DNA from: a virus
Taxonomy: Duplodnaviria; Heunggongvirae; Uroviricota; Caudoviricetes
Length of the DNA stretch: 19,618 bases
Virus record (IMG/VR): IMGVR_UViG_3300014691_000062
Strand: one strand, 5' to 3'
A model generated the notes under the pieces. The model had not been told where the DNA came from, made no database searches, and was given only the letters and a program-made list of their open reading frames with translations. Below are positions 11,481 through 18,250 of the stretch, one piece after another; within the stretch, counting starts at the first letter, position 1; the number at the start of each line of letters is the position of its first letter. The translations under genes and the position numbers were made by a program.

Positions 11481-12313
11481 TCACCCCCTGAATCCTGCCG
11501 GGATCTGGCTGTAGTCCACGTTGTCGTAACTGGATTTGAAATACGGGTCTTCGCGTTTTTCTGTGTATGTGCTGATGGACGGCGATAAGCGCAGGGAAAG
11601 CTCATCCCATTTTTCCCGCAGCTTCGACGGGCTGAGCACGTTACGGCACCAGAACGGATCGCGGCTGACGCGGCTGTACATCTCGCAGATTTGTTTGTGA
11701 GTACGACCATCCTGCACACACATCAGGCGAATTTCGTTTGCCCAGGCTGTCCAGTTCGGTTCTTTGGGACGAACCACCTCGCCGTCACATTCGGCGGCCT
11801 GCTCGTACAGGGCGATGANNNNNNNNNNTGCTGGGTTGGGAAACCGCCGGAACGAGAAGGTTTTTTATCTGACGGATCATGTTTTGATTTTACTGACGGA
11901 TCCCCGCCAGATTCTGACGGGTGAAAACCCGCTTTTTTGCCAGATTTCGACGCATCAAATTTTGACGGGTCAGATTTTGATGCGTCAGATTTTGACGGGT
12001 CAGAATCTGACAGTTGAGAAAATGCCGCTGCCTGAAGCTTCGCAACGTTAAGCTGATAAACATTCGACGCATTGCGGTTACCCTGGCGACGCGCCTTACG
12101 CGTTAACCAGCCTTCTGCTTCCAGCCGTGCGATAGCCGTTCTGACGGTACTCATCCCCGCGCCAATCTGGCGGGCAATGGTTTCAATTGATGGCCAGCAC
12201 ACACCTTCGTCATTACTGAAATCAGCCAGGCGGGCCATAATTGCCACGCTGGATAATTTCATGCCTGATGCAGCGCAACCATCCCATACATAGCCGGTTA
12301 ATTTAGTGCTCAT
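11481..12313 (-). CDS. Replication initiator (lambda O-like organisation, HTH N-domain) with the origin iterons inside the gene; interrupted by an N-run
   Basis: N-terminal HTH domain (…WPSIETIARQIGAGMSTVRTAIARLEAEGWL…), then a repetitive SKSDASKSDPSKFD linker encoded by iterons; C-terminal part is ORF 11481..11777. N-run 11819..11828 inside; GAGGT SD. Confidence 0.7.
11819..11828. other. Run of 10 N inside the replication gene
   Basis: Literal n characters in the sequence. Confidence 1.
11866..12012. repeat. Origin-like iteron array
   Basis: About 8 tandem copies of a ~12-15 bp unit built on TGACGG (cagattttgacgggt, cagattttgatgcgt, attctgacgggt, tactgacggatc …). Confidence 0.7.
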
Positions 12314-13447: not shown

Positions 13448-13544
13448 ACGCCCTCCAAACTAAGTTTTATTAGATGCTAATTACAAATCTATCTTTGGTC
13501 AATAAAAACTAAGATTACTTAGCAATTCAAGAAATGGTGCTCCT
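13448..13544. promoter_or_regulatory. OR-like region: divergent promoters with two operator palindromes
   Basis: CTAAGttttaTTAG at 13460..13473 and CTAAGattaCTTAG at 13509..13522 between divergent cro and cI. Confidence 0.6.
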
Positions 13545-14171
13545 ATGGAAACGGTTGGTCAGCGTATAAAAGCTCTGAGAAGAGTTACCGGAACGTCCCA
13601 GAAAGAATTGGGTAAATTTTGTGGAGTAAGCGACGTTGCTGTGGGGTACTGGGAGAAAGACATCAATACCCCTGGTGGGGAGGCACTTTCGAAATTAGCG
13701 AAGTTCTTCAATACGTCAATAGATTACATTCTTTATGGTGCTGAGTTTGAAGGCAAACTCGTCACAAACATGCGCAGAGTTCCTGTAATATCGTGGGTTC
13801 AGGCTGGGCAGTTTACTGAATGCAGGGCAGCAGAAGTGTTTAGTGAAGTGGACAAGTGGGTAGATACATCATTAAAGATTGGTGATAACTCATTTGCATT
13901 AGAGGTTAAAGGTGACTCCATGACTAACCCTAATGGCCTCCCAACAATACCAGAAGGCGCAACAGTGATTGTAGATCCAGATGCAGAACCTCGTCATGGA
14001 AAAATAGTCATCGCTCGACTTGATGGAACAAACGAAGCTACAGTAAAAAAATTAGTCATCGATGGCCCTCAAAAGTTTTTAGTGCCATTAAATCCTCGGT
14101 ATCCCAACATCCCTATCAATGGTAATTGCCTTATCATTGGTGTAGTCAAAGGAGTTCAATACGAACTCTAA
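13545..14171 (+). CDS. cI: CI-type prophage repressor (HTH plus S24 LexA-like autopeptidase domain)
   Basis: 208 aa; HTH …GTSQKELGKFCGVSDVAVGYWEKD…; S24 motifs GDSM and …ATVKKL…; overall similarity to P22 C2 / lambda CI by recall. Confidence 0.9.
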   Translation: METVGQRIKALRRVTGTSQKELGKFCGVSDVAVGYWEKDINTPGGEALSKLAKFFNTSIDYILYGAEFEGKLVTNMRRVPVISWVQAGQFTECRAAEVFSEVDKWVDTSLKIGDNSFALEVKGDSMTNPNGLPTIPEGATVIVDPDAEPRHGKIVIARLDGTNEATVKKLVIDGPQKFLVPLNPRYPNIPINGNCLIIGVVKGVQYEL

Positions 14172-14184
14172 GACCTCTCTTCTC

Positions 14185-14255
14185 TAACTAAGGCACCGAA
14201 CTAAGAAAAGTTTGGTGTTTTTTCTTGCCATAATAACTAAGTTAAGTTAGATTTT
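14185..14255 (+). promoter_or_regulatory. OL/PL-like region: operator repeats and a candidate sigma70 promoter
   Basis: CTAAG…CTAAG at 14188..14205 and CTAAGttaagTTAG at 14237..14250; TTGCCA (14225..14230), 17-nt spacer, TAGATT (14248..14253). Confidence 0.5.
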
Positions 14256-14361
14256 ATATCAAAGATAACGAACAGGCAGGACGCCCACGAAGTAGCCGCC
14301 TGGGGCATATAAAGTCTAGGGTGATTCGTTAGCAACAAAAAAGCGCCCTACAGGACGCTTA

Positions 14362-14374
14362 GCTCTTTAACAAT
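14362..14374 (+). promoter_or_regulatory. boxA-like element (rrn-type GCTCTTTAACAAT) in the early-left leader
   Basis: 13/13 identity with the E. coli rrn boxA core as I recall it; about 110 nt downstream of the putative PL and 45 nt upstream of the first early-left ORF. Confidence 0.45.
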
Positions 14375-14418
14375 CTGGTCCCCATCAACAAGTAACTGAT
14401 AACTTGAGGAGGTGTGAA

Positions 14419-14625
14419 ATGCACAAAACAGAACCCAAAATCGTCGCGCCCGGATACACAAATGAGGAAATTTACGAGTGGATGGCAAAGAAGCTGGCAG
14501 CTATAAACCAGCTTCGTGAAGTGCTGTCTTATCGACAGGAAACAATAGACTCCTTAAAAAAACTGGATCAGGAAATCACGGTTTTATCACAGGATGTTAC
14601 TTTAGATATTGTGCAGACAAATTAG
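14419..14625 (+). CDS. Small hypothetical protein in the position normally held by N
   Basis: 68 aa from the ATG at 14419 with GGAGGTG SD (track start 14404 is TTG). No arginine-rich motif, so not N-like. AT-rich. Confidence 0.5.
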   Translation: MHKTEPKIVAPGYTNEEIYEWMAKKLAAINQLREVLSYRQETIDSLKKLDQEITVLSQDVTLDIVQTN

Positions 14626-15031
14626 GATCCCATTCATTTTCGTCAAAATCATCAAAGTGATGAATTTGTGATCTCCAGTCTCGATAATCTAAAAATTTCT
14701 GGGCGGTTACGCTTATTTTATCAAGTGTGAGTTCATCCTGAATTGAAAGAAGAAGTTCATCAAATTTCATCTCATTAATCTGTTTTGGCATCCAGTGATG
14801 CTTCATCAGAATAAGGTGAACCAGAGCCTTTTTCCCATTCAACTGATTATAGGGAGTGCCGAATTTCTTCCGGTGCTCATGTAAGACAAGGTCCAGAAGA
14901 GTAAGTAATGTTGCCCTTGATTCCACTTTGCTTATTTCGACTGATGACACTACCCCACTGATTTCAATGCCCCGATACTTTCCAACATTTTCACAGTGGG
15001 ATTTGTACAGCGTGTAGATATTACCGGACAT
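14597..15031 (-). CDS. Hypothetical protein, convergent with and overlapping the preceding ORF
   Basis: 144 aa, ATG with AGGA-type SD; acidic C-terminus (…HHFDDFDENEWDPN…); AT-rich; antisense to the early-left operon. Confidence 0.55.
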   Translation of the reverse strand: MSGNIYTLYKSHCENVGKYRGIEISGVVSSVEISKVESRATLLTLLDLVLHEHRKKFGTPYNQLNGKKALVHLILMKHHWMPKQINEMKFDELLLSIQDELTLDKISVTAQKFLDYRDWRSQIHHFDDFDENEWDPNLSAQYLK

Positions 15032-15046
15032 TTCTTTTCCTTTTGC

Positions 15047-15098
15047 GTTGTTGGGGATAACCAGATTAACCGAATCCTTGTTGTTGGGGAATAACCAG
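15047..15098. repeat. Direct repeat GTTGTTGGGGATAACCAG / GTTGTTGGGGAATAACCAG upstream of the 14597..15031 gene
   Basis: Two copies (15047..15064, 15080..15098) differing by one inserted A; on the minus strand they read TTATCCCCA, one mismatch from a DnaA-box consensus. Confidence 0.5.
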
Positions 15099-15104
15099 GT
15101 CCAC

Positions 15105-15545
15105 CTCGCCTGATGTGGCTAAAAGCAGGCACATAACAGCTAAGTATTTTTAACCAGAGAGAATCCTTAGCGTTGTGGTGAATGCGGCTCAGCGCACGCG
15201 GGTTAAGGTTGAGGCTGACAGTCGACCTTCTGTGGATACCCACCCGTCTGGTGTGCAACCTTCGCCAGGCACCGGGAGGCACCCGGCACCACAACTTTAT
15301 GCTGTGTGTAGTCCTGGAGGTACCAGTTTGTACCCTTGCTTCCGGCTGGTACCGTCCTTTTTACAAAACAGAGAAGAGCATCACCGGACGACGGGCTCAT
15401 AACCCAATCCATCCGGGCGGCTGCCACCGCAGGTGTTCTTCTCTGTTTTGTGGAGAAACTAACCGCCCCTACGGGGGCATTCATGGAAATGTAATTGACT
15501 CAATAATCGCCGGACGGTGAGGGCTTCCTTTTACCCGAATTCAGC
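15105..15545. other. GC-rich, ORF-poor, self-complementary segment (candidate structured RNA or decayed remnant)
   Basis: Only short ORFs with R/P/G-rich nonsense translations in several frames; nested inverted repeats (ggtaccag…ctggtacc 15320..15353; aacagagaaga…tcttctctgtt ~15367..15446; gcccctacgggggc ~15465..15478). Confidence 0.35.
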
Positions 15546-15575
15546 GCGGTGCAGCGCATATACGTGGAGAACAAA

Positions 15576-16112
15576 ATGTCATTTATTAAAACTTTTTCCG
15601 GGAAGCATTTTTATTATGACAGGATAAATAAAGACGACATCGTTATTAACGATATCGCGGTTTCCCTTTCAAATATCTGTCGCTTTGCAGGACATCTTTC
15701 ACACTTCTACAGTGTCGCCCAACATGCGGTGCTTTGCAGCCAGCTGGTGCCGCAGGAATTTGCTTTTGAAGCTTTAATGCATGATGCAACAGAAGCATAT
15801 TGCCAGGACATCCCCGCACCACTGAAACGACTTCTTCCTGACTATAAACGTATGGAAGAAAAAATAGACGCCGTAATCCGTGAGAAATACGGGTTACCTC
15901 CTGTTATGAGCACGCCAGTGAAATATGCCGATCTCATTATGCTGGCAACCGAACGCCGCGATCTCGGGCTTGATGATGGCTCTTTCTGGCCTGTACTGGA
16001 AGGTATCACGGCAACAGAGATGTTCAAAGTGATTCCACAGGCACCGGGCCATGCCTACGGGATGTTTATGGAACGTTTTAACGAGTTATCGGAGTTACGC
16101 AAATGCGCATGA
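15576..16112 (+). CDS. HD-domain phosphohydrolase
   Basis: H…H and HD motifs (…RFAGHLSHFYSVAQHA…LMHDATEAY…); ATG at 15576 with GGAGA SD (track start 15549 is GTG). Confidence 0.75.
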   Translation: MSFIKTFSGKHFYYDRINKDDIVINDIAVSLSNICRFAGHLSHFYSVAQHAVLCSQLVPQEFAFEALMHDATEAYCQDIPAPLKRLLPDYKRMEEKIDAVIREKYGLPPVMSTPVKYADLIMLATERRDLGLDDGSFWPVLEGITATEMFKVIPQAPGHAYGMFMERFNELSELRKCA

Positions 16113-16770: not shown

Positions 16771-17120
16771 TGGAGCCATACAGCCTCACACTCGATGAGG
16801 CCTGTCATTTTCTCAAGATATCCAGACCGACTGCCATTAACTGGATACGCACAGGGCGTCTTCAGGCAACACGTAAAGATCCCACTAAGAATAAATCTCC
16901 TTACCTCACAACACGACAAGCCTGCATTGCGGCTCTTCAGTCTCCGCTGCATACTGTCCAGGTGAGCGCGGGTGATGGCATAACAGAGGAAAGAAAATGT
17001 CACTCTTCCGCAGAGGTGAAATATGGTACGCCAGTTTCACATTGCCGAACGGTAAAAGATTTAAACAGTCTCTTGGAACAAAGGACAAAAGGCAGGCGAC
17101 AGAACTCCATGACAAGCTAA
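16770..17120 (+). CDS. xis: Excisionase (P22-type Xis)
   Basis: 116 aa from the ATG at 16770 ([33 protein letters not shown]…); HTH and position immediately upstream of int. The ORF overlaps the int start by 124 nt, so the true C-terminus may differ. Confidence 0.8.
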
Positions 17121-18160
17121 AGGCTGAAGCATGGCGGGTCAGCAAACTTGGTGAAATACCTGATATAACGTTCGAGGAAGCTTGTGTCAGGTGGCTTGAA
17201 GAGAAAGCACATAAAAAATCACTGGACGATGACAAAAGCCGGATCGGATTCTGGCTTCAACATTTCGCAGGAATGCAACTAAGAGACATTACTGAATCAA
17301 AAATTTATTCAGCAATGCAGAAAATGACGAACCGGCGTCATGAGGAAAACTGGAAACTCAGGGCAGAAGCATGCAGAAAAAAAGGGAAACCTGTTCCAGA
17401 ATACACGCCAAAACCAGCGTCCGTTGCAACGAAGGCTACGCATCTTTCATTTATAAAGGCCCTACTAAGAGCCGCAGAGCGTGAATGGAAAATGCTGGAT
17501 AAGGCACCAATTATTAAAGTGCCTCAACCAAAGAATAAACGGATCCGCTGGCTGGAGCCCCATGAAGCACAAAGGCTGATTGATGAATGTCCGGAGCCAT
17601 TAAAGTCTGTTGTTGAATTTGCACTGGCAACAGGCTTAAGACGCTCGAACATCATCAACCTTGAATGGCAACAAATAGATATGCAGCGCCGGGTGGCATG
17701 GATAAACCCGGAAGAGAGTAAATCAAACCGCGCAATTGGCGTTGCGCTGAATGATACTGCATGTCGCGTATTGAAAAAACAAATCGGGAATCATCACCGT
17801 TGGGTATTTGTGTACAAGGAAAGCTGTACCAAACCAGACGGAACGAAAGCGCCAACAGTAAGGAAGATGCGGTATGACGCAAACACAGCCTGGAAAGCGG
17901 CGCTGAGACGGGCTGGTATTGATGATTTCAGATTTCACGACTTGAGACACACCTGGGCAAGTTGGCTGGTTCAAGCCGGAGTCCCGTTGTCAGTGTTACA
18001 GGAAATGGGAGGCTGGGAGTCTATCGAAATGGTTCGTCGATATGCTCACCTTGCACCTAATCACCTTACCGAACACGCACGGCAAATAGACTCGATCCTG
18101 AACCCATCGGTCCCAAATTTGTCCCAGTCAAAAAATAAGGAAGGTACTAATGATGTGTAA
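16997..18160 (+). CDS. int: Tyrosine site-specific integrase (P22-type Int)
   Basis: 387 aa; catalytic region …[16 protein letters not shown]…MVRRYAHL…; high similarity to P22 Int by recall; ends 14 bp before the 3' end of thrW. Confidence 0.95.
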
Positions 18161-18250
18161 CTTATTGATTTTAATGGTGCCGATAATAGGAGTCGAACCT
18201 ACGACCTTCGCATTACGAATGCGCTGCTCTACCAACTGAGCTATATCGGC
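18161..18250. other. Putative attL (core expected to overlap the 3' part of thrW)
   Basis: Junction between the int stop and the tRNA; P22-type integrases are known to target the 3' end of thrW. Exact core boundaries cannot be set without attR or attB. Confidence 0.45.
18175..18250 (-). tRNA. thrW: tRNA-Thr (anticodon CGU)
   Basis: 76-nt minus-strand sequence GCCGATATAGCTCAGTTGGTAGAGCAGCGCATTCGTAATGCGAAGGTCGTAGGTTCGACTCCTATTATCGGCACCA: cloverleaf, CGT anticodon, encoded CCA end. Confidence 0.95.

Follow-up and report, generated by a model that had tools for sequence, protein, structure and literature searches.

We analysed a DNA stretch of 19,618 nucleotides (hereafter the window; IMG/VR virus record IMGVR_UViG_3300014691_000062, Caudoviricetes), which is a lambdoid prophage of the SfIV, e14 and CPS-53 type with a tRNA-Thr gene (thrW) as its integration site, and in which the repressor gene is followed by two convergent genes, here called S (68 amino acids, plus strand) and L (144 amino acids, minus strand). 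We conclude with high confidence that S and L together form a conserved two-gene module in temperate phages of enterobacteria and, as genome comparison indicates, in E. coli this pair fills a cassette slot between the leftward operator and promoter (OL/PL) and the early-left genes. Both protein families had been catalogued before as hypothetical, and the open reading frames (ORFs) had been noted earlier in SfIV; what is new, and absent from the literature searched, is the obligatory-looking convergent pairing of S with L, its strand logic and the anatomy of the slot.

The pairing was followed with an S search profile built from YdfC-type and sb50-type proteins, which found a convergent S-like ORF beside L in 13 of 14 loci from Escherichia, Salmonella, Klebsiella, Serratia, Yersinia, Pectobacterium, Proteus, Morganella and Pantoea, with L proteins 22-72% identical to that of the window, and had no other matches in these loci except bona fide ydfC genes. 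The W68/YdfC and sb50/GP45/Serratia subgroups of S recognised each other in a profile-profile comparison (probability 87%, expect value (E) 4e-6), in 11 of the 13 pairs the two genes share 29-317 nt at their 3' ends, and the L-L and S-S similarity matrices are correlated (Mantel r 0.84, p 2e-4). The pair is also present in 422 or 423 of 5426 complete E. coli genomes (at least 95% nucleotide identity), and in IMG/VR a convergent S stands at 87 of the 88 L loci having enough flanking sequence, a set that comprises only two subfamilies and includes near-duplicates. A profile search of genome contigs with profile A1 gave only 3 loci, and a viral scan with the Pantoea L protein as query gave none.

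The module occupies four different phage positions, namely the PL operon (the window), the Q-dependent late region (S in ST64B, Klebsiella and Serratia phages, with the L homologues of ST64B and of a Klebsiella phage lying between Q and the holin gene), the P2-type Cox early operon (P2-like Pantoea prophages) and the rightward (PR) operon (Sakai Sp4, where the L homologue ECs_5703 lies between cII and O). The strand logic is constant in all four contexts, with S always running along the lytic operon and L always antisense to it. Because the convergent pairing is kept across distant homologues and these four genomic contexts, we consider S and L to be functionally linked, and the link between the two genes that the original prediction had proposed is borne out.

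The two genes and their overlap are as follows.

14404-14625, plus strand: S ORF, 73 amino acids from a TTG; 14419-14625, 68 amino acids from the ATG, which is preceded by the strong Shine-Dalgarno sequence GAGGAGG (14406-14412).
14597-15031, minus strand: L ORF, 144 amino acids, with AAGGA 8 nt before its ATG.
14597-14625: 3'-3' overlap of S and L, 29 bp, read directly from the sequence.

These coordinates reproduce the 29-bp convergent overlap described earlier, and the family matches given below (YdfC and phrog_1744 for S; NF033230, phrog_5286 and a confident AlphaFold model for L) show that both ORFs are real genes and not chance frames. The guanine-cytosine (GC) fraction of the cassette (14379-15046) is 0.40, with 0.41 for S and 0.39 for L, so that the pair is AT-rich as claimed, clearly so against the downstream flank 15047-15476 (0.54) and the window (0.48) and only slightly against cI (0.43). 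In many pairs, the centre of the overlap is a perfect palindrome, TGGGATCCCA, present in 8 of 13 loci, which by translation is dual-coding, giving W-D-P in both proteins, and which covers W134, the only invariant residue of the L family. In the window, TAGGATCCCA (14623-14632) differs from this palindrome by one base, and the plus strand reads TAG GAT CCC A there, which brings the S stop one codon earlier than in the palindrome pairs. The genes have often been missed in annotation: L is unannotated in ST64B (locus L003, 3281-3715, plus strand) and in Klebsiella phage KPP5665-2 (L004), the 119-residue sb50 of ST64B is probably an over-extended call of an S gene of about 85 residues, and in the SfIV record (L002) the 68-residue S gene is unannotated while a doubtful ORF-35 is listed instead.

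By homology, S is assigned to the YdfC family. It is 38-39% identical to YdfC across its full length (66 of 68 residues, E 9e-17), it matches phrog_1744 (E 4.8e-34), and a tblastn search with it matched annotated ydfC genes in 19 phage records. Its N-terminus carries the motif EPxIVxPxYTxxEIxxWM followed by a coiled-coil-like helix, the subgroups having in common EPxΦΦxPxΦ(T/S)xx(E/D)ΦxxW and then an amphipathic helix, and in the S family alignment (A4) P6 and W21 are invariant. A PDB sequence search with the A4 profile matched only designed coiled coils, to the C-terminal half of S, and we rejected these as homology since the match is compositional. In Qin-type phages, ydfC is a promoter-proximal gene, on the same strand, of the repressor-adjacent ydfABC-dicF-dicB operon, and S too is the promoter-proximal, same-strand gene of a repressor-adjacent early operon. 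No function has been assigned to YdfC (PMC5069750).

Over its full length (model positions 2-142 of 142), L belongs to the NCBIfam family NF033230, "ECs1072 family phage-associated protein", which it matches with 157.8 bits where the cut-off is 70; it also matches phrog_5286 (E 1.5e-90). An exhaustive profile search returned only 76 representative clusters, all of them stand-alone proteins of about 145-155 residues from Enterobacterales. The family is found in about 8% of complete E. coli genomes and also in Shigella, Salmonella, Klebsiella, Yersinia, Serratia, Proteus and Pantoea prophages. The Sakai protein ECs_5703 (old name ECs1072) is a distant member, detected by the family profile only (E 6.5e-13), with a negative result in the direct BLASTP comparison with L. 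The computed properties of L are those of a soluble, hydrophilic protein (grand average of hydropathicity (GRAVY) -0.47, isoelectric point (pI) 6.4), and its AlphaFold (AF2) model is all-helical and confident (predicted local distance difference test score 94.7, predicted template-modelling score 0.89), with no significant structural neighbour and no DNA-binding fold detected. L had no Pfam match, PDB sequence searches with profiles A1 and A2 were empty, and PADLOC-DB v2 gave 0 families for S or L at E <= 1. Remote-homology search and structure prediction, the checks that had been proposed, thus led to family names without function in Pfam, NCBIfam, PHROGs and PADLOC for both proteins; the earlier statement that neither protein matches a family does not hold, since YdfC/phrog_1744 and NF033230/phrog_5286 were matched, and its substance stands in that both families are without known function. 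Since this soluble helical protein has no recognisable catalytic motif, the model suggests that L probably acts by binding a partner.

The place of the module in the E. coli prophages is defined by the following features of the window.

13545-14171, plus strand: cI-type repressor gene (HTH_3 and Peptidase_S24; Pfam PF00717 E 9e-28, PF01381 E 1e-10).
14190-14225, plus strand: intrinsic terminator of the cI transcript, a 13-bp hairpin (-15.1 kcal/mol, z -4.0) followed by UUUUUU.
14199-14253, plus strand: OL/PL, from two operator-like repeats found by direct-repeat search and a promoter scan.
14267-14378: left flank of the slot (PL leader), conserved and common to prophages with other repressors and other cargo, by blastn.
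14335-14360, minus strand: intrinsic terminator upstream of S (hairpin 14341-14360 plus U tract; 8-bp stem, -11.5 kcal/mol, UUUUUU).
15032-15135, minus strand: leader and promoter region of L, with direct and inverted repeats.
15047-15476: right flank of the slot (GC 0.54), from blastn breakpoints.
15142-15364, plus strand: STnc100/PasD-like RNA element (Rfam RF02076, 38.4 bits, E 2e-6, full model length).
16997-18160: integrase gene.
18178-18250: tRNA-Thr gene (thrW).

The two flanks, 14267-14378 and 15047-15476, are far commoner than the cassette: blastn placed them in 2815 of the 5426 complete E. coli genomes, and matched the stretch in full in 401. The same flanks enclose other cargo in loci L005-L012 and L018, some of them with the very same repressor, and at least six mutually unrelated cargoes, S-L included, are known from the slot: ORFs of 171, 164 and 167 residues on the minus strand, a 91-residue plus-strand ORF that is SfV orf33, carried there by SfV although its cI and cro are identical to those of SfIV, and the e14 genes ymfJ (plus) and ymfI (minus). 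Comparison showed the alternative cargo proteins to be unrelated to one another as well as to S and L, and only a BRCT protein neighbouring one alternative cargo matches a candidate defence model in PADLOC (PDC-S48). Because sister prophages with the same flanks, some of them also with the same repressor, carry unrelated cargo, S-L is a swappable insert in a repressor-proximal hot spot, which agrees with the hotspot character claimed for the early-left region in the original prediction, and the comparison with related prophages that it proposed indeed shows the pair behaving as an insert between conserved flanks. As is typical of morons, S-L varies in presence between otherwise collinear phages, has its own terminator and deviates in base composition (GC 0.40 vs 0.48).

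The blastn left breakpoints in L005-L012 fall at 14330/14333 or at 14376-14387, and for minus-strand cargo the left breakpoint (14376-14387) lies just outside the minus-strand terminator and the right one (15038-15047) just upstream of the cargo ribosome-binding site, so that the slot provides minus-strand genes with a common upstream region and a common terminator. Imperfect inverted repeats (14372-14392 vs 15045-15067 and 15077-15097) lie exactly at the cassette boundaries, and they could let the 5' and 3' untranslated regions (UTRs) of the L mRNA pair with one another, or could enclose the cassette within the PL transcript. An invertible cassette was considered on account of these repeats, of which the right-hand ones are better explained as a duplicated segment of the L 5'UTR, and was rejected, given that all 401 full-length E. 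coli matches are collinear and no inverted copies were seen. In e14 (K-12 type, L005 2593-3180), ymfJ and ymfI are likewise convergent at the slot with a 63-bp overlap; YmfJ and YmfI were rejected as homologues of S and L, being unrelated in sequence.

The immunity region upstream of the module is set by the cI-type repressor, which in identical E. coli prophages is labelled a LexA family protein, and the cro and cII-like genes lie on the strand opposite to cI. A promoter scan found a sigma-70-like promoter, TTGCCA-17-TAGATT, at 14225-14253, and this PL promoter overlaps one of the two copies (14235-14253 and 14199-14217) of the operator-like repeat AACTAAGnnnnGTTAGA. Since the ACTAAG....CTTAG core of that repeat recurs twice between cI and cro (starting at 13461 and 13509), we regard the putative PL/OL upstream of the pair, already proposed from the sequence, as sound. 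S starts about 160 nt downstream of this promoter and is the first gene that PL transcribes. The idea that PL is subject to an RNA-mediated termination immunity like that of P4 was dropped, Rfam finding no C4/CI-type RNA, and in the SfV record the label "immunity region" is placed on an ORF at the PR side.

Beyond L, the element at 15142-15364 is GC-rich and non-coding, and the Prokaryotic Genome Annotation Pipeline (PGAP) annotates it as a frameshifted pseudogene, whereas in the K-12 annotation it is ymfH; its part 15315-15468 occurs in 2815 of the 5426 complete E. coli genomes. Its 38.4 bits are below the RF02076 (STnc100) gathering score of 47, and by its full-length model match it is probably a divergent STnc100/PasD relative; its place on the PL strand recalls that of dicF, which in Qin is found downstream of ydfC. 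The STnc100/PasD group of prophage small RNAs is discussed in bioRxiv 10.64898/2026.05.13.724894. The right flank joins the yfdR-like HD-domain gene (15549-16112) directly, as the homology blocks abut with a 12-bp overlap (15465-15476), and compared with SfIV the window is without about 1.3 kb bearing yfdP- and yfdQ-like genes (SfIV orf34/orf33; L002 3556-2263). The window contains 149 N bases, and the translation of the replication-region ORF 11723-12313 shows XXXX (around 11,8xx-11,9xx), which marks masked or unresolved sequence.

The terminators give the module a particular transcript geometry. The hairpin at 14341-14360 is a good terminator on the minus strand, whereas its plus-strand version is weak and has no U tract; it is kept in relatives whose minus-strand cargo ends about 20 nt away, and it is the probable 3' end of the L (cargo) transcript. 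Because this only good minus-strand terminator downstream of L lies beyond S, the L mRNA would carry a 3'UTR of about 255 nt antisense to all of S and to the S ribosome-binding site. Conversely, any PL transcript reaching the early-left genes, xis and int must run antisense through the whole of L. In ST64B the arrangement is mirrored: the L terminator stands within S, 45 nt beyond the L stop codon, S is preceded by a good promoter, and a terminator of the S strand lies just upstream of the L start. This last terminator, upstream of L, is also present in Serratia. In each arrangement, therefore, terminator placement makes one transcript antisense over the whole partner gene, with the terminator upstream of S in the window and upstream of L in ST64B and Serratia. 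The PL strand of the window also has a weak terminator-like hairpin with a T-run at 14700-14725, some 75 nt past the S stop codon and antisense to L, which mirrors the terminator that ends the ST64B L transcript inside S and might attenuate PL read-through.

Upstream of L, a 5'UTR segment, CTGGTTAT(T)CCCCAACAAC, is tandemly duplicated (15045-15063 and 15078-15097), and a conserved element follows, GTGCCTG-N7-CCACATCAGGCGAGGTGG (hairpin part 15101-15118), of which the form GTGCCTG-N-CCACCTCAGGCGGYGGTGG-TATCTT is common to the window, Serratia, Yersinia, Pectobacterium and Proteus. In these last four genera, the element reads as a -35 box, a 16-nt spacer with an inverted repeat and a TGn-extended -10 box, CCACCTCAGGCGGTGGTGG being the part between the -35 and the extended -10. 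Hints of expression are indirect and come only from relatives: a regulated signal of ECs1072 was recorded in an uninduced Sakai culture (PMC2241611), and for the e14 pair at the same slot there is the RNA sequencing cited below.

From this geometry, a mechanism can be proposed. In the lysogen, cI would shut PL so that S would not be made, and L would be transcribed from its own conserved promoter-like element, giving a long 3'UTR that spans S together with its ribosome-binding site. Once the prophage is induced, or a cell is infected, transcription from PL (or from the late promoter) would produce S and simultaneously pass antisense through L. Transcriptional interference or duplex RNA would thereby silence L, as in an excludon, and L protein made earlier would be counteracted by the S protein. 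We infer that the expression of S and L is mutually exclusive, L being lysogenic and S lytic.

Judged only by position, L may be an exclusion or abortive-infection accessory expressed by the lysogen and S the antagonist by which the phage spares itself, a reading that we prefer to its rivals while giving it somewhat less than an even chance. Its context is that of repressor-proximal and Q-holin moron sites, variable presence and low GC, and by analogy with known prophage systems a defence role with self-immunity is plausible. The broader proposal, that this is a widespread system in which L, a protein with no known fold relatives, would block or abort superinfecting phages and would be disarmed by the YdfC-family S together with the antisense switch, is distinctly more doubtful, and a variant of it would have L neutralise the YdfC-type proteins of incoming Qin-like phages. 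In a Yersinia prophage (L022 4327-4821), a SieB-family superinfection exclusion gene lies between L and the repressor, on the same strand as L.

Several observations weigh against this account of the module. The dependence of S and L on each other is not absolute, because Qin-type phages carry YdfC but no L, S is missing from one L locus (L015), and S is altered after about residue 48 in many E. coli variants and in an E. albertii variant. The S-like match in Sakai Sp4 is marginal (E 4e-3), and the IMG/VR count carries the narrow sampling given above. Moreover, the -35/-10 spacing of the L element is about 22 nt in the window, vs 16 nt in the other four genera, and no sigma-70 match for an L promoter was found in the window even at relaxed thresholds; with this poor match and spacing, L has only a candidate promoter in the window and may or may not be well expressed in the window's own lysogen.

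The rival that survives best is a regulatory or host-takeover module without any defence role, to which we give a modest chance. S would be a phage effector, early or late, that acts on some process of the host or of the phage, and L a lysogen-side brake or regulator, the two tuning the lysis-lysogeny commitment or the timing of induction, with L possibly autoregulated through the inverted repeat in its own promoter. The same architecture speaks for it as for the exclusion reading, and so do the presence of S alone in Qin-type early operons, which suggests a function of its own, the inverted repeat in the spacer of the conserved L promoter element and the lack of any defence-family match. It has to contend with the fact that the module is dispensable, sister prophages with the same repressor and flanks carrying other cargo, that it sits at classical moron sites, Q-holin included, and that L shows no DNA-binding fold.

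It is unlikely, in our view, that S-L is a toxin-antitoxin (TA)-like addiction pair in which a constitutively made toxic L would be countered by S, by an antisense RNA or by both, thereby stabilising the prophage. The conserved tight pairing of a small with a larger protein and the overlapping antisense transcripts would suit such a pair, and type I systems are known from the early regions of prophages, for example RalR/RalA in Rac. Yet S stands under PL or other early or late lytic promoters that are off in the lysogen, so that the antidote would be absent when L is made, and L persists with a truncated S or with none; for these reasons, classical TA logic, including the antisense-regulated form first suggested for this pair, fits poorly. 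A type II system is a co-directional, autoregulated operon, whereas these genes are convergent, and no TA family was matched in Pfam or PADLOC. With type I systems of prophages such as RalR/RalA and hok/sok, the module shares two transcripts with antisense overlap in a prophage early region, but both S and L code for protein, S being conserved, the supposed antidote gene is under a repressed lytic promoter, and L, hydrophilic and 144 residues long, is no small hydrophobic peptide like the type I toxins.

Less probable still is that S and L are two unrelated neighbours, S being one early gene among others and L a separate moron that consists of a single gene, with the overlap a matter of tight packing and the co-occurrence one of linkage. 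The E. coli count of 422 or 423 genomes, being at 95% nucleotide identity or more, can indeed be explained by linkage, and YdfC without L and L015 without S would be expected; the pairing nevertheless persists at 22-35% protein identity, always in the same convergent geometry, it survives relocation into four different operons of lambdoid and P2-like phages, and the two proteins co-diverge.

Finally, the idea that S does the work of lambda N or HK022 Nun, promoting antitermination or termination of the PL transcript, hardly deserves consideration, for S resembles them in position only, as the first ORF after PL, whereas it is acidic (pI 4.97) with 2 arginines in 68 residues and, as had been noted, without an arginine-rich motif, has no homology to them, is dispensable in sister prophages, and has homologues in late and P2-type operons. 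Neither S nor L (5 arginines in 144 residues) matched an N-type family in Pfam or NCBIfam, and the only hairpin in the PL leader (14341-14360) is the minus-strand terminator. The expectation of an N-type antiterminator at this place should itself be given up: relatives with the same flanks (L006, L008, L009 and L012) have no plus-strand ORF at all between PL and the early-left genes, and therefore such a protein is not expected in this phage group, and genes of the S type are found in late (Q-holin), P2-like early and PR surroundings as well.

The module bears on two orphan families, YdfC and ECs1072, which here receive a first functional handle: they belong together, and their expression would be wired to opposite phage states, lytic and lysogenic. 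YdfC is moreover one of the "y-genes" of E. coli K-12, in an operon (dicBF) that has been studied well. The precise slot beside the repressor, with its common promoter-side flank and terminator, could be mined for lysogen-expressed cargo, and should L prove to act in defence or exclusion, the module would offer a new and compact case of prophage defence with built-in self-immunity.

Compared with what is known, S is of the same size as YdfC of the Qin-type dicA-ydfABC-dicF-dicB operon, has the same operon position and is its homologue, with the difference that YdfC has no ECs1072-family partner there, whereas S here and in most other lineages convergently overlaps L. The name-giver of NF033230/phrog_5286 (Sakai Sp4 ECs1072, now ECs_5703) is, like L, antisense to its operon, but the family entry is a "hypothetical equivalog" that is silent on any partner gene, and the pairing with S is added here. 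With excludons such as lambda oop-cII and the e14 ymfI-ymfJ pair at the same slot, which was called an excludon from RNA sequencing (PMC12288877), S-L has in common that the genes converge, that their 3' regions overlap and that the terminators would render the mRNAs mutually antisense; in S-L the ORFs overlap and the long antisense 3'UTRs are implied by the terminator positions as read from the sequence. It differs from ymfI-ymfJ in that the sequences are unrelated and that S and L are both conserved, co-diverging proteins, which goes beyond a local transcript overlap.

The closest parallels for the preferred reading are two systems of prophage defence with cognate self-immunity, SieB/Esc of P22 and BstA/aba of BTP1, where the self-immunity is provided by an internal in-frame product (Esc) in the first and by a DNA element (aba) in the second. 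The likeness, which for S-L is predicted, is a repressor-proximal accessory determinant made by the lysogen together with a second element by which the same phage exempts its own lytic growth. S-L has no sequence or fold similarity to either of them, and its proposed antagonist would be of another kind, a separate convergent protein gene combined with antisense transcription.

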